DNA of 46,332 nucleotides from Alcanivorax sp. Lineage in GTDB: Bacteria; Pseudomonadota; Gammaproteobacteria; Pseudomonadales; Alcanivoracaceae. Each line of letters begins with the position of its first letter. Within the stretch, counting starts at the first letter, position 1. The stretch is from positions 1-46,332 of the forward strand of contig JAWVWY010000001.1 of NCBI GenBank assembly GCA_033723495.1. Reading direction: 5' to 3'. Positions 1,910 to 14,384 of the stretch are shown one piece after another. The translations under genes were made by a program, and so were the position numbers. The notes under the pieces are model-generated. The model had not been told where the DNA came from and ran no database searches. It saw only the letters and a list, made by a program, of their open reading frames with translations.

Positions 1910-4129
1910 ATGAAACAGACCCACTATCACACCTGCAATTTGTGCGAGGCCATGTGCGGCCTGGAGATCGAGCACCAGGGCGACGAAATTATCGCCATCC
2001 GTGGTGACAAGAACGATCCATTCAGCCGCGGACACATCTGCCCCAAGGCGGTGGCGCTGCAGGACATTCACCATGACCCGGATCGTCTGCGTCACCCGGT
2101 GAAGCGCACCGATGATGGCTGGCAGCCGATCAGCTGGGAGCAGGCACTGGACGAAACTGCCGAGCGCATTCATGCCCTGCAGGCCAAACATGGCCGCAAT
2201 AGCGTGGCCATGTACTTCGGTAACCCCACCGCCCATAACCACGGTGCCCTGTTGATGCTGGCACCCTTTATCAAGGCAGTGCATACCCGCAATCGCTTCA
2301 GTGCCACCTCCGCCGACCAGTTACCGCACCAGCTGGCCACCCTGCAGCTGTTCGGGCATCAGGCCCTGTTTCCTGTGCCTGATGTGGATCGCACCGATTA
2401 CTTTCTGGTGATTGGCGGCAACCCGCTGGCGTCCAATGGTTCGATCATGACGGTGCCGGATATCAAGGGCCGCCTGAAGGCATTGCAACGGCGTGGCGGC
2501 AAACTGGTGGTGGTGGACCCGCGTCGCACCGAAACCGCCCAGGTGGCCGATGCGCACCATTTTGTGCGGCCAGGCACTGATGTCTATCTGCTGCTGGCGC
2601 TGGTACAGGTGCTGTTTAACGAACAAAAGGTGGCGCTGGGACACCTGGCGGAGCTGGTCGATGGCGTGGATGAGCTGGCAGCCCTGGTGGCCGAGTGGCC
2701 GCCGGAAGTGGTGGCCGATAGCGTCGGCATGGAGGCCGAGGTGATTCGTCAGCTGGCCCGGGATATCGCCGACGCACCACGGGCGGCGGTGTATTCGCGG
2801 GTGGGCGTGACCACCAGTGCCCATGGCAGTCTGAGTGCCTGGCTGGTGTACGTGATCAATATCCTCACCGGCAACCTGGATCGCGAGGGGGGCCTGATGT
2901 TCACCAAGCCGGCCTTCGATATTGTCGCCATCAGTGGCGTCAGCGGAGATACCGGCGGTTTTGGTCGCTATCATAGTCGCGTACATAACTACCCGGAATT
3001 CGCCGGCGAATTTCCAGTCACCACCCTGGCCGATGAAATGCTGACCCCGGGTCAGGGACAGGTGAAGGGCTTTATCAGCCATGCCGGCAATCCGGTACTG
3101 TCATGCCCGGATGGGCAGCGTCTCGATCGGGCGCTGGCCGAACTGGAGTTCATGGTCAGCATTGATCTCTACATCAATGAAACCACCCGCCATGCGGATA
3201 TCATCCTGCCGCCCACCGGGCAGCTGGAACATGCCCAGTTCGATCCCATCTTTCAGGCGGTATCGGTACGCAATGTAGTCAAGTTCTCGCCGCCACTGTT
3301 CGCCAAACCGGATGGCGCGCTACACGACTGGGAAATCATGCAGGCGCTGATTTCCCGGCTGAATCGGCTCAACGCCAAGACCCACAGTCATCGCCTGCAG
3401 GCGAGGCTGCAGGACGGCTTCCTCAAGCGTATGGGGGACCGCGGGCTGATTGATCTGGGCCTGCGTCTGGGGCCCTATGGTAATGGTGGTCAGGCCCTTT
3501 CCCAACTCCGGGAAGAGGGGCTGCATACCTTGCCCAAGGTGGCCTGGAAGCTGCTGCGCGGCAAGGGGCCGGGCATGAAGCTGAAGACGCTGCTGAATTC
3601 ACCCCACGGCATTGATCTGGGGCCGCTGGTACCGATGCTGCCGGATCGCCTTTATACCGCCAACAAGCGTATCGCGCTGGTGTCCCCCCTGTACCGCGAT
3701 GCCCTGGCGCAGCTGACCCTGCCTGAACCGCTGGCAGACGGCCAGCTACTGATGATTGGCCGCCGTCATATCCGCAGTAATAACTCCTGGATGCACAACA
3801 GCCAGCGGCTGGTAAAGGGCAAGCGGCGCTGCAATGCCATGTTGCATCCGGACGATGCCCGGCGTCTCAAGCTTGAAGAAGGACAGATTATTACGGTGCG
3901 TTCGGCGACCGGTGCCATTGATCTGCCGCTGTGGATCAGTGAAGACATTATGCCCGGCGTTATTAGCGTGCCCCATGGCTGGGGGCACGATCGTGAAGGC
4001 GTGCTGCTGGATGTGGCGCGGTCCGTTGCCGGCGAGAGCATCAATGATGTGATCGGCAATGACCGGGTGGAAGCGGTGACCGCCATGGCACAGCTCAACG
4101 GTATTCCCGTGCAGGTCAGTGCCGCCTGA
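1910..4129 (+). CDS. Molybdopterin-dependent oxidoreductase (DMSO reductase superfamily, N-terminal 4Fe-4S)
   Basis: CNLCEAMCG...HICPK Fe-S motif, VVDPRRTETA, ADIILP, C-terminal molybdopterin-binding domain (LHPDDA...PHGWG). No Tat signal. Start 1910 chosen; 1895 is possible. Confidence 0.9.
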   Translation: MKQTHYHTCNLCEAMCGLEIEHQGDEIIAIRGDKNDPFSRGHICPKAVALQDIHHDPDRLRHPVKRTDDGWQPISWEQALDETAERIHALQAKHGRNSVAMYFGNPTAHNHGALLMLAPFIKAVHTRNRFSATSADQLPHQLATLQLFGHQALFPVPDVDRTDYFLVIGGNPLASNGSIMTVPDIKGRLKALQRRGGKLVVVDPRRTETAQVADAHHFVRPGTDVYLLLALVQVLFNEQKVALGHLAELVDGVDELAALVAEWPPEVVADSVGMEAEVIRQLARDIADAPRAAVYSRVGVTTSAHGSLSAWLVYVINILTGNLDREGGLMFTKPAFDIVAISGVSGDTGGFGRYHSRVHNYPEFAGEFPVTTLADEMLTPGQGQVKGFISHAGNPVLSCPDGQRLDRALAELEFMVSIDLYINETTRHADIILPPTGQLEHAQFDPIFQAVSVRNVVKFSPPLFAKPDGALHDWEIMQALISRLNRLNAKTHSHRLQARLQDGFLKRMGDRGLIDLGLRLGPYGNGGQALSQLREEGLHTLPKVAWKLLRGKGPGMKLKTLLNSPHGIDLGPLVPMLPDRLYTANKRIALVSPLYRDALAQLTLPEPLADGQLLMIGRRHIRSNNSWMHNSQRLVKGKRRCNAMLHPDDARRLKLEEGQIITVRSATGAIDLPLWISEDIMPGVISVPHGWGHDREGVLLDVARSVAGESINDVIGNDRVEAVTAMAQLNGIPVQVSAA

Positions 4130-4402: not shown

Positions 4403-4588
4403 GGCAAGGATGCCACGTCATCGCTTCACAAGGCGCATTCTCTCCTGCTTGTTCCCCAAATCCCCACCGTATTCCGGGTGTGATCCGTCCGGGACCGTAT
4501 CACTACGGGCCTGATCCACTTTCCTGTTCTGTGCAGAAGCGCGGGTGCGCGGATGCGATGACTAAACACAGGATGATAAGGAATCACC
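4403..4588 (+). promoter_or_regulatory. Candidate CsrA/RsmA-binding GGA array in the 5' leader of the collar/adhesin operon
   Basis: GGCA-AGGA-TGCC hairpin (4403-4414), CGC-GGAT-GCG (4548-4557), ACAGGATG (about 4568-4575) and AAGGA in the RBS (about 4578-4582). Confidence 0.4.
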
Positions 4589-5098
4589 ATGGAACCGTAC
4601 CTCGGTGAAATTCGCTTGTTCGGGGGGAACTTCGCCCCATCTGGCTGGGCGTTCTGCAATGGCCAGCAATTACCGGTTGCACAATACAGTGCCCTGTTCT
4701 CGTTGATTGGCACTTCCTATGGCGGTGACGGTCGCAACACCTTTTGTCTGCCGGACCTGCGTGGCCGGCTGCCGCTGCATATGGGCAGCAATCTCGGTGA
4801 GTCGTTTGCGCTCGGCGAACGGGGCGGCGAAGAAACGGTGCCATTGCTGGAGAGCCAGCTGCCCCGGCACAGCCACGGGCCACTGGCCGAGGCTGAAGCC
4901 GGCGACCTGTCCAGCCCGGCGAAAGCCGTCTGGGCGCAACCCGGCGCGGATGCTTATTCCACTACCGCGCCGGATACCACCATGGCGGCCCAGGCCGTGT
5001 CGCCTGCGGGCGCAGGCCAGCCCCACCAGAACATGATGCCCAGCAAGGCCCTGAGTTTCATTATCTGCCTCGCCGGCATCTACCCCAGCTCGAACTAA
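4589..5098 (+). CDS. Phage tail collar domain protein (MdpB/COG4675-type), single domain
   Basis: YLGEIRLFGGNFAPSGWAFCNGQ...LFSLIGTSYGGDG...LPDLRGR, LPRHSH, PHQNMMP...FIICLAGIYP; RBS AAGGA upstream. Confidence 0.9.
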   Translation: MEPYLGEIRLFGGNFAPSGWAFCNGQQLPVAQYSALFSLIGTSYGGDGRNTFCLPDLRGRLPLHMGSNLGESFALGERGGEETVPLLESQLPRHSHGPLAEAEAGDLSSPAKAVWAQPGADAYSTTAPDTTMAAQAVSPAGAGQPHQNMMPSKALSFIICLAGIYPSSN

Positions 5099-5110
5099 GG
5101 AGTCACTGTC

Positions 5111-6163
5111 ATGGAAGAAGCCTTCATCGGCGAACTTCGCCTCTTCGCGTTTCATACCGTTCCCAGGGGCTGGATGGCCTGTAATGGTCAGCTCCTGACT
5201 ATCAACCAGTATCAGGCACTGTTTAGCCTGCTGGGCACCACCTATGGCGGCGATGGCATTAGCACCTTCGCGTTGCCGAACCTTCAGGGGCGTGTTCCGG
5301 TTCATACCGGGACGGAGCATGGCATGCTGCTGGGACAGAGTGCCGGGGCAATGACCCACACCTTGACCGGCAACGAGATGCCCCGGCATAGCCATCAGGT
5401 GATGGCGGATTCCGCCGCCGCCACCAGCGCCGAGCCGGGCAATGGCCTGTGGGCGGCCAGCGCGTCTTCGCCTTATGCCAAGCCGGCGGATAACAACCCG
5501 GTGACCATGGCATCGGCTGCCATCGCCGATGCCGGCAGCGATCAACCCCACAACAACATGCAGCCTTACCTGGTTACCAACTTCTGCATCGCGGTTGACG
5601 GCATTTTTCCCTCCCAGAGTGGTTCCCAGGATGCCGGTGCCTTTCTGGGGGAAACCCGATTGTTCGCAGGCAAATTCGCGCCCGGCGGTTGGTCGTTCTG
5701 CAATGGCGAATTGCTGCCTATCGCGCAAAATACGGCGCTGTTTTCCCTGCTGGGCACGACCTATGGCGGTGATGGCCGCAACACTTTTGCACTGCCGGAT
5801 TTGCGTGGCCAGGCGCCCATGCACTGGGGCACCGGCCCGGGCCTGACGACAAGAACGCTGGGCGACAAGGTCGGCGTCGATGCGGTGCCTCTGCAGGTCG
5901 CCGAGATGGCCGCCCATGGGCATCAGGCCAGAGCGGTCAGTGGTCCGGCGGAGACCGGGCAGGGGCCAGAGAATGCCTGTTGGGCGCAGAGCAAACTGGG
6001 TCGGCAGACGGCTGAACTGTACGGCAGCGGCAGCACGCCGACGGCGATGTCGGAGCAGGCGCTGTCTGCAGCGGGGCAGGGGGCGCCCCATAACAATATG
6101 CAGCCATATCTGGTGCTGAATTTCATTACTTCCCTGACGGGGCTTTATCCGCCCCGCTCCTGA
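5111..6163 (+). CDS. Tandem double phage tail collar (MdpB-type) protein
   Basis: Two complete collar/MdpB units (FIGELRLF...GIFPS and FLGETRLF...GLYPPRS) joined in frame by the linker SQSGSQDAG; RBS AAGGAG. Confidence 0.9.
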   Translation: MEEAFIGELRLFAFHTVPRGWMACNGQLLTINQYQALFSLLGTTYGGDGISTFALPNLQGRVPVHTGTEHGMLLGQSAGAMTHTLTGNEMPRHSHQVMADSAAATSAEPGNGLWAASASSPYAKPADNNPVTMASAAIADAGSDQPHNNMQPYLVTNFCIAVDGIFPSQSGSQDAGAFLGETRLFAGKFAPGGWSFCNGELLPIAQNTALFSLLGTTYGGDGRNTFALPDLRGQAPMHWGTGPGLTTRTLGDKVGVDAVPLQVAEMAAHGHQARAVSGPAETGQGPENACWAQSKLGRQTAELYGSGSTPTAMSEQALSAAGQGAPHNNMQPYLVLNFITSLTGLYPPRS

Positions 6164-6174
6164 CCGTGGTGAAG

Positions 6175-6198
6175 GCAGGCGGGTTGCCACCCGCCTGC
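6175..6198 (+). other. Intercistronic stem-loop without U-tract
   Basis: GCAGGCGGGT-tgcc-ACCCGCCTGC, a perfect 10-bp stem between the collar genes and the adhesin gene. Confidence 0.7.
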
Positions 6199-6259
6199 AA
6201 TATGTCGAGACCGGTGGCTCGGCCAGGATTGCAACCTAGGCGTTAAAGAGAGAAAAACC

Positions 6260-9200
6260 ATGAACAAAGTGATCTGTCGATTGGGCTTGCTGCTGGGGAT
6301 GCTGCTGGCCTTTGGTTCTGCGCAGGCCTTGACCAGTGCCGACAGCCAGGATTTCGAGAGCGTTGCCGATGGCACGACTTACAGCAGCCCGGCGACGATT
6401 GGCAGCTTCACTTTCTACAGTAACAGTAGTGGTCAGCCGGCCAACCAGAAGTTTGCAGTCGGCAGCTTTTTTACCCATGTCGGTAACGTGGGGCTCTACG
6501 CGGCGAGTTGTTGTGTGGGGGATGTCACTGAGGTTCGGATCGTCGGCGCCAGTACCTTCAAACTCAACTCCATCTGGTTGGGCCCTGGCGCCGGTAATTC
6601 GGCTGCTGTTCTGCACGCCTACAAAGGGGGCGTTCAAACCGGCCTCGGACGGTCGGTGACCCTGAGCGATTCCAGCATCGATACCAGCGGCTACAGCGAA
6701 TTCCAGGATATCGATGAACTTCGTATCACCGGCGCCGACCTGGATCTGCTGGTGGACAACATCATGGTTGCTGCGCCGGCGACCTCCGATAGTGACGGTA
6801 ACCTGACTGCCGGGGGCGGCAGTGAACCCGGCAGCATCGATACCGCCGCCGGTGCCAGCGCGGCACTGGATTTCACTCTGCGAGACGGTGGCACGTCCGA
6901 CGGCGCAGCCATGACCGTGTCGCAGGTCAAGGTGCATGTTTCCGGTACCAGTACCGCGACCGAGCGCACCAATACCGCCTGGACCCTGACGGGACCGGAT
7001 ATCAGCGGCTCCGTGACCGGCAGCTACAGTGGTGGTGTGGTGACCTTCTCTGGATTGCCGATCAGTGTCGCCGACGGCGCCAGCGAGACCTATACGGTCA
7101 ACGCCAATTTGAGCCATAGTGGCCTGACCGAAGGCCATACCTTTGTTCTCAGCCTGGACGGCGATACCGACCTGACCACAGGAAGCGCCGGTACCCAGAT
7201 GGGAACCACTTCGGCCGTCAGCAACGGCGCGGGCTTCGCCACCAGCGTCACCGCCACAAGTCTAGCCTTTACCACGGAGCCGGCCGGCTCCGTGTCCGGC
7301 AGCGCCCTGACCACCCAGCCAGTGGTCGTGGCAGAGGATGCATTTGCTAATGCCGACCGCGATTTTAGCGCCAATGTCAGCCTCAGCGAGGCCAGCGCGG
7401 GCACCTTGAGCGGCACTACCACGGTGGCGGCCAGCAGTGGCGTGGCCACTTTCACCAATGTGGCCTACACCGCCTCCGCCGACCAGGAAGCCTTTACCCT
7501 CAGTGCCGTCGCCAGCGGCCTGACCAGCGCTACCGCCAGCAGTGTGACCTCTGACGTGGTGGCCACCCAGCTGATGTTCAGTACCCAGCCGGCCCCCACC
7601 AGCATCAGCAGTGGTGCATCCAGCAACTTCACCACCGCACCGGTGGTCAGGGCGGTGGATGCCAACAACACCGTTGATACCGGCTACAGCAGCGATATGG
7701 TGATGTCGGTGACCAACACCTCCGGAGGGGCGCCCACCGGCACCGTCAACAGCCTGACCGGCACCGGGGATACCGATGGCAGTGGCACCACCGTCACCCT
7801 GATCCCAAGCAGCGGTAGTGCCACCTTCAACGGTTTGGCCCTGCAATATACCAACGGCGGCAGCACCGACAGCATCGTCCTGCATACGGCATCCGTTGGC
7901 CTGACCACCGCCAATAGCACCACCATCACGTCGACCTCCGTGCCGAATGTGACAGACGGCAATATCTCTATCTCCGGCGCCAGCGGTATTGGCGGGGCCT
8001 ACAAGATCGGCGATGTGGTGACCGCCACCTGGAACAACACCGCCAGTGGCGACAACAACAGCGGTATTACCGGCGTTAGCGTGGACTTCAGCCAGTTTGG
8101 CGGCGCTAGCAGCGTGGCCGCCAGCAATAGCAGTGGTAGCTGGACGGCGACTTATGTCATCACCGCCGGCAGCATCGACGCCACTAACCGCAACGTCAGT
8201 GTCTCTGCCACCAACGCCAACGGCACCAGTACCACCTCGGATACCAGCAACGCCAGCGTTGACAACATCGCGCCTACCGTTACCGATGGCAACATCAGTA
8301 TCAGTGGCGCCAGCGGCAGCGGCGGGACCTATATCATTGGTGACACTGTCACCGTCAGTTGGGACAACACCGGGGCTGGTGACAACAACAGTGACACCCT
8401 GGCTGGCGTCACGGTTGACTTCAGCCAGTTCGGCGGTGGTGCCAGCGTGGTTGCCAGCAACAGTGCCGGCACCTGGACGGCGACCTATACCCTGACAGCC
8501 GGCAGTGTGCAGGCCAGCAACCGCAATGTGTCGGTGACCGCCACGGATAACGCTGGTAACTCCACCACCACGGCGGACACCAGCAACGCCTCGGTGGACA
8601 ACACGGCGCCGGCTGCGCCCTCAACACCGGATCTGGCTGCCAGTTCCGATAGCGGTGCCAGCAACACGGATAACATCACCAACGACAGCACCCCGACCTT
8701 TACCGGCACGGCGGATGCAAACAGCTCCGTTACGGTGATCAGTTCGGTAGATGGCGATCTGGGCACCACCACCGCTGATGCTGCGGGCAACTGGAGCTTT
8801 ACGCCGGGCGCGGTGCTCTCCCCGGGTAGCCACGATATAACCGCGACCGCCACGGACACGGTCGGTAATACCGGTGCGGCGTCCGCCGCGCTGTCGATCA
8901 CCATCGATAGCAGTGCGCCTGCGGGGTACGGCCTGGCGGTGTCTCCCAGCCCGGTGAACCTCAGTAATCAGAACGCGATCACCGTTACCTTCAGCGGTGC
9001 CGAACTGGCCAGCAGCTATCAACTGACCATCAGCAGCAGTGGTGGTGGTACGCCGGTAACCCGCAGTGGCACCGTCACGTCGGCAAATATGGCGATCATC
9101 GGGCTGGATCTCAGTGGCTTGGCAGATGGCACCGTGCAAGCCAGCCTGACCCTGACCGATAGCGCGGGTAACACTGGCAGCAGCGCCTCCGACACGGCAC

Positions 9201-12200
9201 CCAAGGACACCGTTGCGCCAACGCTGGTATCCAGCAGCCCGGTGAATAACGCCACCAATGTTGCATTGCGGCCTGGCGTGTCGCTGACCTTCAGCGAACC
9301 GGTCATGGCTGGCAGCGGTGCCAGTGATCACCTGACCCTGACCGCCTCGGATAACACCGTCGTCTTCGACAGTGTGGCGGCCGGTGCCAATGTTGGCATC
9401 AGCAGCAACACGGTGGCACTGACGCTCAGCAATGACCTGATACCGGGGCTGGTCCACCAGCTGGCGGTGGGCATGGATGCCCTCACCGATGCTGCCGGCA
9501 ACCCTTATGCCGGGGGCAATGTACTGCAATTCACCGCCACCGATGGCAAGCCAACGGCCAACAACGACAGCTTCCCGGTGACAGAAGATACGCCCAGGCA
9601 GTTGACGGTGCTGAGCAATGACAGCGTGCAGCGAGGCAGCCTCAATGCCGCCAGTCTGGTGGTGGCGTCGGCACCGCAACATGGCAGCCTGACGCTGGAT
9701 ACCGGTAGTGGCGTGCTGACCTATCAGCCTGCCGCCGATTACAACGGTAGCGACAGCTTCACCTATCAGGTGCAGGACAGCTACGGCTTCACCAGTAACA
9801 CGGCGACGGTGCTACTGACGGTGAATGCCGTCAATGATGCACCGCGTACCCAGCCGGACAGTGCGACCACCACGGTGGGGCAGCCGATCACCGTGGATGT
9901 GCTGGCCAATGACACTGAGGTGGATAGCGGTGACAGCATTGATGCCAGTTCGCTGCAGGTCTTTGCCGCGCCATCCCAGGGGGTGGCCGTGGTTTCCGGT
10001 GGCAAACTGAGCTATACCCCGCCGGAAAACTTCAGTGGTGGTGTGTCGCTGACCTATCAGGTCGCCGACAGCCATGGTGCGCTATCGCCGGAAACCACGG
10101 TGAACATTGTGGTGCAGTCGTCCGCAGGGCCGGTGGCGGTGGATGATTCGGCCACGGTGACCGAAGACACCGCCAAGTCCATCAACGTGCTGGCCAATGA
10201 TAACGGCAGCATTGATACCAGTACCCTGGCGGTGGTGATGCAACCACAGCATGGTCAGGTGCAGGTGGTGTCGGGGCAGCTTCGCTATCAGCCTGCCGCC
10301 AATGACAACGGCGCTGACAGCTTCAGCTACCGGGTCGCGGATAGTAGTGGTGCCAGCAGTAATGTGGCCAATGTCAGCGTGACGGTCACCGCGGTCAACG
10401 ACGCGCCGGTTGCCAACCCGGATACCGTGGTGGTCACCGGCACCTCGCCGGTGGATATCAACGTCACCGGCAATGACAGCGATGTGGATTCGCCGCTTGC
10501 CACGGCCACCATTGAGGTAACGCAGTCTCCTGCGGCGGGCGCCGTGGCCATCAATGGCGGCCTGATTCGCTACACGCCGCCGTCCTCCGGTGCCGTTAAT
10601 GACAGTTTCCAGTACCGCTTGCATGACAGCGGCGGTGCCGTCTCTGCCCCTGCCCAGGTGACCATCACTACCAGTGCGGCCAATCAGGCCCCGCTGGCGG
10701 CCAATGATAGCGCCACGGTCGATCAGAACAGTTCTGTGCTGATTGATGTGCTGGCCAATGACAGCGATGCGGATGGCAGCCTGGATGCGGGCACCCTGAA
10801 TCTGACGGTGCCGGGTCATGGCAGCGCGGTGGTCGAGGCCGGCAAAGTCCGTTATACGCCGGACGCGCAGTATCACGGCGCGGACAGCTTTAGCTACCAG
10901 GTGGCGGATAACCTTGGCGCGCAATCTGTGCCTGCCACAGTCTCTGTGCAGGTACAGCTGGTGAACCAGCCACCGGTGATCAGTGGCGCACCGGGCACAT
11001 CGGTGCAGCAGGACCAGCCGTACCAGTTCCAGCCGGTTGCCTCCGACCCGGATAATGATCCGCTGACGTTTGCCATCAGCAATAAACCGGCCTGGGCCAG
11101 CTTTGATACCTCAACCGGGCAGCTGCAGGGAACGCCGGGTAACAGTGATGTCGGTACCGACACGGGCATTGTCATCAGCGTTTCCGATGGCACCGTGTGG
11201 TCCAGCCTGCCGGGCTTCAGCCTTACCGTGGTGAACGTCAATGATCCGCCGGTGGCGCAGGATGACAGCTATAGCCTGAATGAAGGGGGCATCCTGACGG
11301 TCTCGGCCGCTCAAGGGGTACTGGCCAACGACAGTGACCCGGACAATGACACCCTGACCGCCACTCTGGTCAGTGGCCCGGCATATGCCAGCAGCTTCAA
11401 GTTGAATGGCGACGGCAGTTTCAGTTACCAGCACGATGGCAGCGAACACTACAGCGATCAGTTCCGCTACCAGGTCAGTGATGGTCAGGGTGGCGTGGTG
11501 GACGCCGTGGTCAATCTGGCGGTGGCGCCGGTCAATGATCCACCGGCCTTTGTTTCCACACCGCCGACGACGCTGGCCGCCGGCAGTACGCTGAATTATG
11601 CGGTGTCGGTGCAGGACCCGGACAGCACGGCGACGCTGACGCTGGCCAGTGCGCCGGCCTGGCTGCAGCTGAATGGCAATACCTTGACGGGCACTGCGCC
11701 GGCCACTGCCGCAGGCAGCGATGTGACGGTGGTGCTGTGGGCGGATGATGGCCAGTTGCAGGTACAGCAGTCCTTTACTCTCGGCATTACCGCAACGGGG
11801 AGCGGTCAGCTTCAACTCGATACCCAGTGGACCGGCTTGCCGGCCAAGGTCAATCAGCCGCTGCAACTGACATTGAGCGTCGCCAACCCGTCCGGGCCGG
11901 ACCTGACCGATGCCACCCTGGTGGTGCAATGGCAGGGCCATACTGTGCCGCAGGTGCAGGGCTGTACGCAGATCGACAGCCAGACCCTGCATTGCCCTCT
12001 GGATCTGGCCAGCGGTGACCGCCAGCTATGGCGATTGGCTGTCGATACCGCGTCCACCGGTGACCAGTCAGCGACCGTCACGGTTGAGGACAGTGACCAG
12101 CAAACGCTGGCGAGCAAGTACACGGATGTGTCGATCAGTGATGACACCCTCACACAGGGCGATATCAACAGCACCATCGCCAAGGCTACCGCGATTACCT

Positions 12201-13558
12201 TGCTGCGTAGCCAGGGTCAGCGTTATCTGGCGGCCGGAACCGATGGCCAGGGGGTAACCCTGTATCGCTTGTACAACATGCAGCCGGTGGCGGTGACAAC
12301 GCTGGATGCCGGTGGGCATGTGGCGGCACTGGCCAGCATCGACTGGAACCACGATGGCCTGGACGACCTGGTCGTGCTGAACCGCGATACCACCCCTTCC
12401 GCCATCTACCTTAACCAGGGGAGCGAGCAGTTTATCGCGGGTCCGTCCCTGCCTGCGGGTAACCAGCTGCAGTTACATGATACCGATGGCGATGGTTACC
12501 CGGATCTGTTGATCGGGGTGCCCGGGCTGTATCGCCTGCCAGGCAGCGTCAACGGACAGAGCACCCTGCAGACGGTACCGACAACCCTGCCGATCAGTCA
12601 CTTCAGTGCGGTCGGCAAGGGCGGCCTGGTCACCAGTCAGGGCAATGTGCTGCGCTATGCCAGCCTCGGCATCAGCGGTGTTACTGCCAGCGTCAGCAAG
12701 GTGTTGAAAGGTGAAATCCGCACCCTGGTTAGCGCTGATATCAATCATGACGGCCTGACCGATGTGGTGGTCGGCCTGTCGCCCGATGCCCAGGGTGTCG
12801 GTGGTGGTGTCGCGGTGTTGACCATCGATGGCAATGGCCAGTGGCAGGAACAAACCGTAATTGGTCATGCCGCGGTGACCGGGGTGATGCTGGGTGACAT
12901 GGACGGGGATGGCCTGGATGAGCTGCTGGTGCAGCACCTCAATGGCAGCTGGCAACGGTTCCGCCAGAACGGGGCTCTCAGCCAGTGGGCGCTGGCGCCG
13001 CAAGCCTTCTATCTGAAGGCCAGCCTGGGCCTGGTGGCGGATCTCAATGGTGATGGCCTGGCGGATTTGCTACTGGCAAACACCCAGCAGGGCACCCTGG
13101 CGATTTACCTGGGCAGCATGACCCGGATTGGGCCACAGGCGGATGTTTCCGTGTCGGCGACGCTGGGGGAAATGAACAAGCATCAGCAGCGTCAGTACCG
13201 CATCACGGTTCAAAACCACGGCCCGGGCGACAGCCTGGGCACGCAACTGTTACTGGTTATCCCGCAGGGCCTGTCGGTGACGGATGCACCGAGCCAGTGT
13301 GTCCAGGCGGGCACCCTGTGGCAGTGTGCTGTCGGTGCCATTGCCAGTGGCGATCAGCAAACACTGACAATGTCGCTCTCCGGTGATCTCGGCGCTTTCT
13401 ATACCAAGGTGCTGGCGGTGGTTAGTGGCTCGGCCAGTGATGCCGACACCAGCAACAACCGTGCGGCCAAGATATTTGGAAAAGGTGGCGGCGGTGGCAG
13501 CCTGGGCTGGTGGTGGTTGCCCGGCCTGTGGCTCATCCTGCGGCAACGCAGAAAATAA
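6260..13558 (+). CDS. Giant repeat-rich surface protein/adhesin with GlyGly-CTERM anchor (2432 aa)
   Basis: Sec signal (…AFGSAQA); S/T/G-rich Ig-like domains; SDSG-x3-DNITND Big-type domain; SbsA-like Ig domain; multiple cadherin-like tandem-95/Big_9 repeats (PxAxDD...VLAND...YTP...G-D-F-Y); He_PIG-type domains; FG-GAP repeats (DWNHDGLDD, DTDGDGYPD, DINHDGLTD, DMDGDGLDE, DLNGDGLAD); DUF11-like domain; C-terminal GGGGGS-hydrophobic-RQRRK. Confidence 0.9.
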   Translation: MNKVICRLGLLLGMLLAFGSAQALTSADSQDFESVADGTTYSSPATIGSFTFYSNSSGQPANQKFAVGSFFTHVGNVGLYAASCCVGDVTEVRIVGASTFKLNSIWLGPGAGNSAAVLHAYKGGVQTGLGRSVTLSDSSIDTSGYSEFQDIDELRITGADLDLLVDNIMVAAPATSDSDGNLTAGGGSEPGSIDTAAGASAALDFTLRDGGTSDGAAMTVSQVKVHVSGTSTATERTNTAWTLTGPDISGSVTGSYSGGVVTFSGLPISVADGASETYTVNANLSHSGLTEGHTFVLSLDGDTDLTTGSAGTQMGTTSAVSNGAGFATSVTATSLAFTTEPAGSVSGSALTTQPVVVAEDAFANADRDFSANVSLSEASAGTLSGTTTVAASSGVATFTNVAYTASADQEAFTLSAVASGLTSATASSVTSDVVATQLMFSTQPAPTSISSGASSNFTTAPVVRAVDANNTVDTGYSSDMVMSVTNTSGGAPTGTVNSLTGTGDTDGSGTTVTLIPSSGSATFNGLALQYTNGGSTDSIVLHTASVGLTTANSTTITSTSVPNVTDGNISISGASGIGGAYKIGDVVTATWNNTASGDNNSGITGVSVDFSQFGGASSVAASNSSGSWTATYVITAGSIDATNRNVSVSATNANGTSTTSDTSNASVDNIAPTVTDGNISISGASGSGGTYIIGDTVTVSWDNTGAGDNNSDTLAGVTVDFSQFGGGASVVASNSAGTWTATYTLTAGSVQASNRNVSVTATDNAGNSTTTADTSNASVDNTAPAAPSTPDLAASSDSGASNTDNITNDSTPTFTGTADANSSVTVISSVDGDLGTTTADAAGNWSFTPGAVLSPGSHDITATATDTVGNTGAASAALSITIDSSAPAGYGLAVSPSPVNLSNQNAITVTFSGAELASSYQLTISSSGGGTPVTRSGTVTSANMAIIGLDLSGLADGTVQASLTLTDSAGNTGSSASDTAPKDTVAPTLVSSSPVNNATNVALRPGVSLTFSEPVMAGSGASDHLTLTASDNTVVFDSVAAGANVGISSNTVALTLSNDLIPGLVHQLAVGMDALTDAAGNPYAGGNVLQFTATDGKPTANNDSFPVTEDTPRQLTVLSNDSVQRGSLNAASLVVASAPQHGSLTLDTGSGVLTYQPAADYNGSDSFTYQVQDSYGFTSNTATVLLTVNAVNDAPRTQPDSATTTVGQPITVDVLANDTEVDSGDSIDASSLQVFAAPSQGVAVVSGGKLSYTPPENFSGGVSLTYQVADSHGALSPETTVNIVVQSSAGPVAVDDSATVTEDTAKSINVLANDNGSIDTSTLAVVMQPQHGQVQVVSGQLRYQPAANDNGADSFSYRVADSSGASSNVANVSVTVTAVNDAPVANPDTVVVTGTSPVDINVTGNDSDVDSPLATATIEVTQSPAAGAVAINGGLIRYTPPSSGAVNDSFQYRLHDSGGAVSAPAQVTITTSAANQAPLAANDSATVDQNSSVLIDVLANDSDADGSLDAGTLNLTVPGHGSAVVEAGKVRYTPDAQYHGADSFSYQVADNLGAQSVPATVSVQVQLVNQPPVISGAPGTSVQQDQPYQFQPVASDPDNDPLTFAISNKPAWASFDTSTGQLQGTPGNSDVGTDTGIVISVSDGTVWSSLPGFSLTVVNVNDPPVAQDDSYSLNEGGILTVSAAQGVLANDSDPDNDTLTATLVSGPAYASSFKLNGDGSFSYQHDGSEHYSDQFRYQVSDGQGGVVDAVVNLAVAPVNDPPAFVSTPPTTLAAGSTLNYAVSVQDPDSTATLTLASAPAWLQLNGNTLTGTAPATAAGSDVTVVLWADDGQLQVQQSFTLGITATGSGQLQLDTQWTGLPAKVNQPLQLTLSVANPSGPDLTDATLVVQWQGHTVPQVQGCTQIDSQTLHCPLDLASGDRQLWRLAVDTASTGDQSATVTVEDSDQQTLASKYTDVSISDDTLTQGDINSTIAKATAITLLRSQGQRYLAAGTDGQGVTLYRLYNMQPVAVTTLDAGGHVAALASIDWNHDGLDDLVVLNRDTTPSAIYLNQGSEQFIAGPSLPAGNQLQLHDTDGDGYPDLLIGVPGLYRLPGSVNGQSTLQTVPTTLPISHFSAVGKGGLVTSQGNVLRYASLGISGVTASVSKVLKGEIRTLVSADINHDGLTDVVVGLSPDAQGVGGGVAVLTIDGNGQWQEQTVIGHAAVTGVMLGDMDGDGLDELLVQHLNGSWQRFRQNGALSQWALAPQAFYLKASLGLVADLNGDGLADLLLANTQQGTLAIYLGSMTRIGPQADVSVSATLGEMNKHQQRQYRITVQNHGPGDSLGTQLLLVIPQGLSVTDAPSQCVQAGTLWQCAVGAIASGDQQTLTMSLSGDLGAFYTKVLAVVSGSASDADTSNNRAAKIFGKGGGGGSLGWWWLPGLWLILRQRRK
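7943..8608 (+). repeat. Two tandem 110-112 aa internal repeats in the adhesin
   Basis: Units 7943-8272 and 8273-8608 share VTDGNISISGASG.GG.Y.IGD.VT..W.NT..GDNNS....V.VDFSQFGG...ASNS.G.WTATY..TAGS....NRNVSV.AT...DTSNASVDN.AP. Confidence 0.9.
13484..13558 (+). other. GlyGly-CTERM (rhombosortase) sorting signal
   Basis: GGGGGSLGWWWLPGLWLILRQRRK: Gly-rich motif, short hydrophobic helix, basic tail. Confidence 0.85.
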
Positions 13559-13573
13559 AGGGTTGAACGCATG

Positions 13574-13642
13574 TTGCCGCGGGGCGCCGTGGCAAGCTGA
13601 CACGAAATGCACAGAGCACCCAGCATGCTGGCGTGCTCTGTG
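13574..13642. other. Two adjacent stem-loops downstream of the adhesin gene
   Basis: TTGCCGCGG-ggcg-CCGTGGCAA (13574-13595) and CACAGAGCACCCAGC-at-GCTGGCGTGCTCTGTG (13610-13642). Confidence 0.55.
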
Positions 13643-13856
13643 ACCTTTAGGCAGCCCTGCCACCTTGTCCCTGTGCCTTATCAAGGGGGGCGGTGTTCTC
13701 TTCTTTTAGCGGGGCAGGAGGGGGCCGGCAGACCAGGCAACCCCATTTTCGGTCAGCCTGTCTCTGGCCGAGCAAATGACAGACCCAAAACGGCGGCCTG
13801 AAAATTCACACGTCCTTTTTCCGCCAGCGGGCATCCTTGAACAAGGAGGATGTCCA

Positions 13857-14384
13857 ATGCGCTGGTTGATCATTGCGAGTGTAATTATGTTGCAGGCTTG
13901 TCAGACCCCGCAAACGCGGCCCATCGAGGTGGCCGACAATCTTGACCTGGATCGCTTTATGGGCGACTGGTATGTGATTGCCAACATTCCCACACCACCG
14001 GAAAAGGGCGCCCATAACGCCATGGAAAGCTATCGCCGTATCGGCCCATACAAGGTGGCGACAACCTTCACCTTTCGTAACGGCGCTTTCGATGGTGAGT
14101 TGAAGCGCATGACCCCCACGGGCTTTGTCAGCCGGGATAATCCTGCGATCTGGGGCATGCGTTTTATCTGGCCGTTCAAGGCGGATTTCCGCGTGCTCTA
14201 TGTAAGCCCGGATTATCAGACCACCATCATCGGTCGACAAAAGCGTGATTACCTCTGGATCATGGCACGCACCCCGCAGCTGCCGACGACGCAGTATCAG
14301 TCGCTGGTCAAGCAGGCGGCGGAGCGCGGTTATGACACCGGCCTGTTGCAGAAAGTCCCCCAACGGTGGACGCCGTCTCCTTGA
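13857..14384 (+). CDS. blc: Outer-membrane lipoprotein, lipocalin family
   Basis: Lipobox LQAC; LDRFMGDWYVIA lipocalin motif; DYLWIMAR; RBS AAGGAGG before ATG 13857. Confidence 0.88.
   Translation: MRWLIIASVIMLQACQTPQTRPIEVADNLDLDRFMGDWYVIANIPTPPEKGAHNAMESYRRIGPYKVATTFTFRNGAFDGELKRMTPTGFVSRDNPAIWGMRFIWPFKADFRVLYVSPDYQTTIIGRQKRDYLWIMARTPQLPTTQYQSLVKQAAERGYDTGLLQKVPQRWTPSP

Follow-up and report, generated by a model that had tools for sequence, protein, structure and literature searches.

A 46,332-nucleotide stretch of an Alcanivorax sp. genome (NCBI GenBank assembly GCA_033723495.1, contig JAWVWY010000001.1, positions 1 to 46,332 of the forward strand; hereafter the window) carries a block of three genes, two encoding proteins made of Collar domains and one encoding a giant adhesin. 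By sequence comparison, the block is a streamlined version of a Gallaecimonas-type locus, and it represents, in derived form, a phage-free cassette that is widespread. Across other genomes, the link between collar genes and large surface proteins is strong, not obligate, and holds in both directions.

The first collar gene (4589–5098, + strand) encodes a 169-aa protein, a class A unit, with one Pfam Collar domain (PF07484) and an HxH motif at residues 94–96. The second (5111–6163, +) encodes 350 aa comprising two fused units, of classes B and C as defined below, with one HxH per unit; the three Collar domains therefore correspond to two genes, since the second holds two. PF07484 scores were 101 bits for the 169-aa product (one domain) and 180 bits for the 350-aa product (two domains), and a profile search of the whole host genome (G000; 91% complete, 237 contigs) matched these three domains alone. 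The domain starts at residue 6 or 7 of the collar open reading frames (ORFs), 5–6 residues after the start, leaving no N-terminal shaft and no signal peptide recognisable by eye. The adhesin gene (6260–13558, +) encodes 2,432 aa running from a signal peptide to a GlyGly-CTERM sorting signal. An earlier interpretation of the window made from the letters alone (the sequence-only reading) had described three Collar domains preceding, on the same strand, a 2,432-aa Ig/cadherin adhesin, with a signal peptide on the adhesin and none on the collars. ORF calls and Pfam bear this out, the Sec-type signal being judged by eye. The absence of virion genes nearby, also claimed there, holds as well. PHROGs searches on 43 window ORFs found tail families in the two collar ORFs only and no capsid, baseplate, lysis or integrase families (the adhesin and MscS ORFs, outside this set, were scanned with Pfam only), and Pfam found no sheath, tube, baseplate, capsid or lysis genes among 27 window ORFs.

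The three-gene block is a 9.7-kb insertion between housekeeping genes. Flanking orthologues were sought in 23 congeners and both were found on one contig in 18; in the remaining five, one orthologue was unmatched or the pair lay on separate contigs. The oxidoreductase–blc spacing is 58–1,504 nt in all 18 comparable congeners vs 9,730 nt in the host. The left limit (4121–4129, +) falls at the 3′ end of the molybdopterin oxidoreductase gene. At the right limit (13792–13870, +) lies a stretch that resembles the empty site in the congener G002, comprising the oxidoreductase stop, a spacer and the blc start; from 13792 onward the window is 72% identical over 79 nt to that empty site (L060). The nine bases at the left limit recur as a near-copy at 13793–13801 (+; 1/9 mismatch), a match reached in 6% of shuffles and not significant alone; as there is also no integrase, we claim no insertion mechanism. 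The G+C and third-position G+C contents of the block are similar to those of the flanking genes, and the two collar genes and the adhesin are the only intact ORFs inside the insertion. The G002 alignment also suggests that the blc lipocalin gene (13776–14384) more likely starts at ATG 13857 than at 13776.

In the protein database, the nearest full-length homologues of the adhesin are labelled Pseudaeromonas and Gallaecimonas, reaching 72–74% at best over residues 24–560. An order-level search found the adhesin N-terminal region in 15 of 401 genomes. One genus, g289, supplies five of these, and all five carry, arranged as in the window, a divergent GNAT acetyltransferase gene, collar genes A, B and C, and the gene for an adhesin of GlyGly-CTERM type. 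The host collar units are 55–66% identical to the g289 units (class A alone 58–65%) and 40–53% identical to plasmid matches (best 40 of 78).

Relative to the g289 loci, the host copy has been trimmed at several points. The GNAT gene is reduced to a relic (4407–4520, − strand) in which the last 21 codons are recognisable and the bulk of the gene is deleted; it matches the G434 locus at 62% over 21 aa by tblastn (E 1.2e-5) and at 71% over 173 nt by blastn. The idea that GNAT is frequently lost among the closest relatives proved wrong, as shown by tblastn. DUF6916, present in three of the five g289 loci, was not found in the host genome (91% complete; the positive control G489 was detected). At the B–C junction (about 5611–5645) the stop codon, GGAG ribosome site and ATG of the separate genes have all been replaced, so that one sequencing error cannot account for the fusion. 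The junction is spanned by one contig of the probable source sequencing run, which is not independent confirmation. An in-frame deletion just behind the signal peptide has removed the DUF4347 domain from the adhesin. In L162–L165 this domain (adhesin residues about 59–164) has conserved His-Gly and Gly-Cys motifs, reminiscent of a clan CD cysteine peptidase. Genes for an S8 peptidase and DUF4915 lie directly upstream of some related adhesins, with collars in L171 and L175 and without them in L161.

The association with surface proteins was surveyed from both sides. On the collar side, we classified by hand 44 collar-picked loci with 3.5 kb on both sides, including five plasmid loci hand-chosen of 78. 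A non-housekeeping neighbour of at least 900 aa was present in 25 of the 44, vs 13.9% of random spots in G000. In a further 14 the partner is a smaller protein, secreted or anchored; among these are nine collagen-repeat proteins in the host family (three Pfam-checked) and one self-anchored fusion. Eight neighbours of 1,156–1,178 aa beside triplets from congeners are Mfd (one Pfam-checked) and were not counted as adhesins. On the adhesin side, collars occur in 13 of 16 genomes (five of the 16 from one genus); the distance to the matched gene is at most 3.5 kb in 11 of these and 12 kb in one, and in one the collars are on another contig. Any collar match at all was found in 26 of 300 genomes of a class-wide sample that includes G000 and the unpublished G106. 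Metagenome loci picked by the adhesin repeat (76 picked and 75 counted, with several near-duplicates; the dropped L158 has a triplet) contained collars in 20 of 75 cases and triplets in nine, and among loci with at least 4 kb upstream, collars were present in 17 of 46. The association in other genomes on which the sequence-only reading depended is thus seen from both sides.

The collar units fall into three classes. Collars occur in 25 of 70 genomes of the host family, with three units in 18, two in two and one in five. A FastTree phylogeny of 183 units from 60 loci supports class B at 96, with modest support for class A (an open fork at 89) and class C (which joins two forks, 86 and 91). Forty-six of the 59 three-unit loci, window included, have one each of A, B and C (mean 12.2 and maximum 24 in 2,000 shuffles, which overstate the significance because the loci are related), and 13 depart from this pattern. 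Triplets fetched later had one of each class in 10 of 10 cases, some at low margin, and the window's own class C assignment is low-margin by HMM. At L035:2398–5716, six consecutive collar genes in the order B-A-C-B-A-C represent a duplicated triplet.

Natural fusions point the same way. Among the best 120 of 5,235 homologues of the fused protein, a ranking biased toward multi-unit proteins, 112 are triple-collar single chains and eight have two units, the query included. By a crude window test, the N-terminus is hydrophobic in 97 of these 112, and many of the chains have a PEP-CTERM-like anchor at their end. The linear triple fusions have one unit per class in 23 of 37 cases, several at low margin. 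P0002, a natural protein with its units in linear A-B-C order, folds with a pLDDT of 90.8 and a pTM of 0.87, and its units match the A-1(L) fibre, gp12 and gp37 tips with Z-scores of 5.7–6.2. The HxH motif is present in 156 of 156 full-size units, the window's three being HSH, HSH and HGH. We consider it very likely that the A and B-C chains together make up a single A:B:C knob, as the class pattern and the confidently folded triple fusion suggest, which is in keeping with the trimer proposed by the sequence-only reading. The knob probably holds a six-histidine metal site as in gp12. A circularly permuted form accounts for 75 of the same best 120 of 5,235 homologues; these triple collars (within P0006–P0120, and at L064:9264–10832) have a signal peptide and a PEP-CTERM-like anchor right after the last HxH.

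The adhesin consists, in order, of the signal peptide, a predicted carbohydrate-binding module (CBM)-like domain, Ig-like domains with two VDFSQF repeats, a Big_9/cadherin-like stalk, FG-GAP, DUF11 and GlyGly-CTERM; Pfam domains include Big_9/cadherin-like, Big_13, Big_5, He_PIG, FG-GAP and DUF11. Residues 24–175 (6329–6784, +), the part most distant from the anchor, have a predicted jelly-roll fold. The model of residues 24–330 has a mean pLDDT of 61.5, and residues 24–175 align with 8x8h at Z 11.0 (rmsd 2.9, 128 aligned; VIA-align). This region is variable among relatives and is predicted to be the adhesin's own carbohydrate-binding tip. Residues 24–180 were found in G000 only among the 300 genomes of the class-wide sample, and a metagenome scan with the adhesin N-terminus alone returned nothing. 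The VDFSQF repeats (7940–8605), two of 110 aa, have no counterpart in Pfam; in unrelated giant proteins, homologues with as much as 74% identity are repeated up to 11 times. The GlyGly-CTERM signal (13490–13555, +) occupies the last 22 residues and scores 17.9 bits with TIGR03501 (cut-off 15.5); the whole-protein scan missed it and it was seen only when the C-terminal 52 aa were scanned separately. Rhombosortase (TIGR03902, 145.5 bits), GspD (533.6) and GspE (710.5) are each over cut-off in the host genome, and the anchor that the sequence-only reading had assigned is confirmed at this level. A pattern search of the six-frame ORFs of the host genome found no other GlyGly-CTERM motif; a genome-wide TIGR03501 profile search gave no match, with the positive controls silent too.

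Three observations bear on which end of the knob works. Mini-units of the host family lack both the HxH metal site and the tip in 27 of 27 cases. The anchor lies 2–10 residues after the last HxH in 63 of 73 anchored single-chain forms, so that the collar face would point outward. The adhesin has its own CBM-like tip. Together these fit docking by the collar face better than a phage-style receptor tip, with the collar body as the constant part, and they count against the receptor-binding tip that the sequence-only reading had envisaged. The tip is about 50 residues long in most of the 156 full-size units; those of the window are 49–55 residues long and variable, and this retained tip may still bind a ligand. 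The mini-units occur as triplets of about 130–140 aa, without HxH or tip, in L039–L047 (G003, G006, G008, G010, G011, G018, G020, G023 and G024). In these loci of genus g1, their operon lies beside mfd and also encodes GNAT, DUF6916, a Tat-like NHL/propeller protein and a collagen-repeat protein that is secreted. An obvious idea raised by this arrangement is that the collar trimer caps a triple helix of collagen.

We tentatively propose that the A:B:C knob reaches the surface, where it would attach through its collar face to the adhesin encoded in the same block and give it a second binding head. The 169-aa chain and the fused 350-aa chain would assemble into one metal-centred knob resembling a phage fibre end. 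The adhesin would pass through Sec, then rhombosortase, then type II secretion, and is likely rhombosortase-anchored; the knob would then dock by its collar face on the anchored adhesin and be displayed there. That the collars act outside the cytoplasm is the better-founded part of this proposal, and on balance we favour it; physical docking on the adhesin is possible, at somewhat below even confidence. A folded trimer cannot use Sec and no partner with a Tat signal is present here, which leaves release in vesicles or by lysis as the remaining guess for export. TatC is above cut-off in the host genome and 16 Tat-like DUF6916 ORFs occur in other loci; Tat hitch-hiking on a DUF6916 partner cannot account for export here, as DUF6916 was not found in G000. 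The ESM Atlas added nothing to the DUF6916 name. In Hymenobacter, triplets have twin-arginine-like leaders, and several single collar genes have Sec-like leaders. Each collar gene of L027, L028 and L034 (Hymenobacter) has a twin-arginine-like leader, L028 and L034 being without an adjacent large surface protein.

Several observations weigh against this proposal. Five of the 44 collar triplet loci have no evident surface partner, three of the 16 adhesin-side genomes have no collars, and collars are absent from 29 of the 46 metagenome loci with at least 4 kb upstream. In 42 of the 65 large proteins beside triplets, BLAST detects no region in common with this adhesin, which, with the lack of a collar shaft, also counts against the surface appendage suggested by the sequence-only reading. 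A common docking domain was sought among the large neighbours and none was found, and partner C-termini and domains suggest several export routes (SLH, T9SS, barrel, RTX-like and GlyGly; partly by eye). Triplets beside giant proteins are nearly all signal-less, this locus has no export helper, and GNAT, intact in 5/5 g289 loci by tblastn, is deleted to a relic in the host. For the class pattern, the modest tree support of A and C, the relatedness of the loci and the biased homologue ranking count in the same direction, and the 75 permuted anchored fusions are mostly without class B.

Alternatively, the released trimer could bind surface glycans or lipopolysaccharide (LPS) of cells or particles by itself, co-regulated with the adhesin and not bound to it. 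We regard this as rather unlikely, and equally so its variants in which the free trimer is a cross-linker, a matrix protein or a blocker of phage receptors. In its favour, the partners are unrelated in sequence, forms that stand alone have Sec, Tat-like or PEP-CTERM signals of their own, and the window's units keep a variable tip. A virophage trimer is reported to bind Synechococcus LPS (PMC12724248). However, the tip and metal site are missing from every mini-unit, and the repeated tight adjacency to surface-protein genes and the co-transfer within one insertion exceed what co-regulation needs.

The signal-less trimer might instead be an intracellular scaffold or chaperone that, along with cytoplasmic enzymes, matures or modifies the large surface protein ahead of its export. 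Adhesin-adjacent triplets lack signals almost throughout. Within 3.5 kb of triplets, GNAT is found in 42 of 59 loci and DUF6916 in 40 of 59, and sulfotransferase, JmjC, formyltransferase and methyltransferase genes adjoin several cassettes. Such a role would remove the export puzzle and is compatible with partners of any secretion route. We nevertheless judge it unlikely, since homologues that carry signal peptides and membrane anchors show that the fold works outside the cell, and the collars here are intact although GNAT is deleted.

It is improbable that the collar genes are decaying passengers of a transferred adhesin gene that alone matters. The deleted GNAT, missing DUF6916, lost DUF4347 and run-together genes could be read as decay, and conserved columns are kept somewhat below the class medians (B 0.83 vs 0.90, C 0.88 vs 0.93). 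Against this, there is no stop or frameshift in 1.55 kb, all three HxH motifs are kept, the junction has been reworked at the stop codon, the ribosome site and the start codon, and fusions of two and three units are found naturally elsewhere. Measured against four relatives, collar dN/dS is 0.18–0.39, and window-branch pN/pS is 0.30–0.33 at codons invariant in three relatives, with synonymous sites near saturation; this selection could predate the GNAT loss. By these estimates the collar genes are under purifying selection.

An origin of the collar genes as remains of a prophage, a tailocin or a contractile injection system is suggested by the fold and Pfam family of phage fibre tips and is highly improbable, as the sequence-only reading had held, because the window has no virion genes and the genome no other collar gene, the units lack a shaft region, their best identity among 497 phage records is 38% vs 55–66% to the cellular g289 cassette of the same gene order, and a viral-contig scan with collar A, which reaches close relatives only, returned no relative.

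The intergenic regions add some detail. The 12-nt gap between the collar genes (5098/5111) holds the GGAG site, and the 96-nt gap ahead of the adhesin contains a perfect 9-bp G+C stem (6175–6198) without a T run, which might set the relative levels of the collar and adhesin parts on a shared transcript. A strong inverted repeat at 13610–13642, downstream of the adhesin and without a following T run, is a possible terminator or mRNA-stabilising hairpin. A promoter and terminator scan of the locus gave signal at chance level. No RNA data set was listed as containing the locus, which speaks neither for nor against its expression, and the single DNA data set that contains it may be the source sample.

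The closest structural parallels are phage fibre tips (T4 gp12, 1OCY and 5IV5; gp37, 2XGF; cyanophage A-1(L), 8KEC), with which the host units have in common the Collar domain, HxH and a returning C-terminal strand. The host differs in lacking a shaft, virion attachment and phage genes, and in having three different units, two of them fused, in place of a homotrimer. In the DSLV2 virophage, three consecutive short PF07484 proteins co-purify as a 1:1:1 heterotrimer, with the collar end modelled docking on a partner (PMC12724248). The host also has three consecutive short collar units; the DSLV2 tail is viral and capsid-associated, whereas the host units are chromosomal and beside a sorted surface protein. 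RhiB of Rhizobium and MrpB of Microcystis are cellular, non-phage collar proteins of unknown function (PMC13133039, PMC3328848), encoded by single genes in rhiABC or mrpAB operons, unlike the three-class set beside a giant surface protein. The insertion has no further intact ORF in which a RhiA or MrpA partner could lie; a genome-wide RhiA search was not made. Database names of the collar homologues are COG4675 'microcystin-dependent protein', a name found in PMC5579227 and PMC3174227. Ruegeria pomeroyi YP_165745.1, a single collar protein with HxH detected in exoproteomes (PMC4949626), is one gene with a signal peptide, in contrast to the signal-less host units, and a PilV-collar fusion is another bacterial reuse of the domain (PMC9881135). 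Like GlyGly-CTERM/rhombosortase proteins, the adhesin has a signal peptide and the C-terminal motif, and the host genome has rhombosortase and core genes of type II secretion; the account of these proteins mentions no collar partner, the word 'collar' being absent from it (PMC3237569). According to PMC13393428, the motif confers association with the membrane, and crossing the outer membrane requires a second signal.

The new elements are the delimited insertion, the fusion of B and C, the accessory genes lost in nature, the linkage test made from both sides and the mini-units without a tip. Alteromonas genome papers are said to note collar genes beside a giant protein; none of these came up in the literature search. 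No published description of a collar-triplet plus adhesin cassette was found among the full-text matches listed (few subscription papers; supplements beyond PMC4949626 were outside the scope). The novelty claimed by the sequence-only reading stands to that extent; the locus is not novel on its own, as it is a derived copy of a widespread cassette. A wider view, in which the phage fibre collar was domesticated across many phyla as a heterotrimeric, signal-less cap that uses an unrecognised export route and plugs onto unrelated giant adhesins, is speculative and at present doubtful. It is similarly uncertain whether this genome would then represent the minimal working form, with two collar chains and one adhesin and without an acetyltransferase or Tat partner.

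COG4675/MdpB proteins are common and have no assigned function, and this locus offers a small, testable setting for them: the block moved as a unit, its accessory genes were lost naturally, two subunits are fused, and five close full-length versions are available for comparison. As the mini-units without tip or metal site show, no part other than the collar body persists in all the forms observed, and this indicates which face to mutate. If the trimer is displayed on the adhesin, a phage part would have been reused as a bacterial adhesin accessory, and the locus would hint at a route by which folded proteins without a signal are exported.

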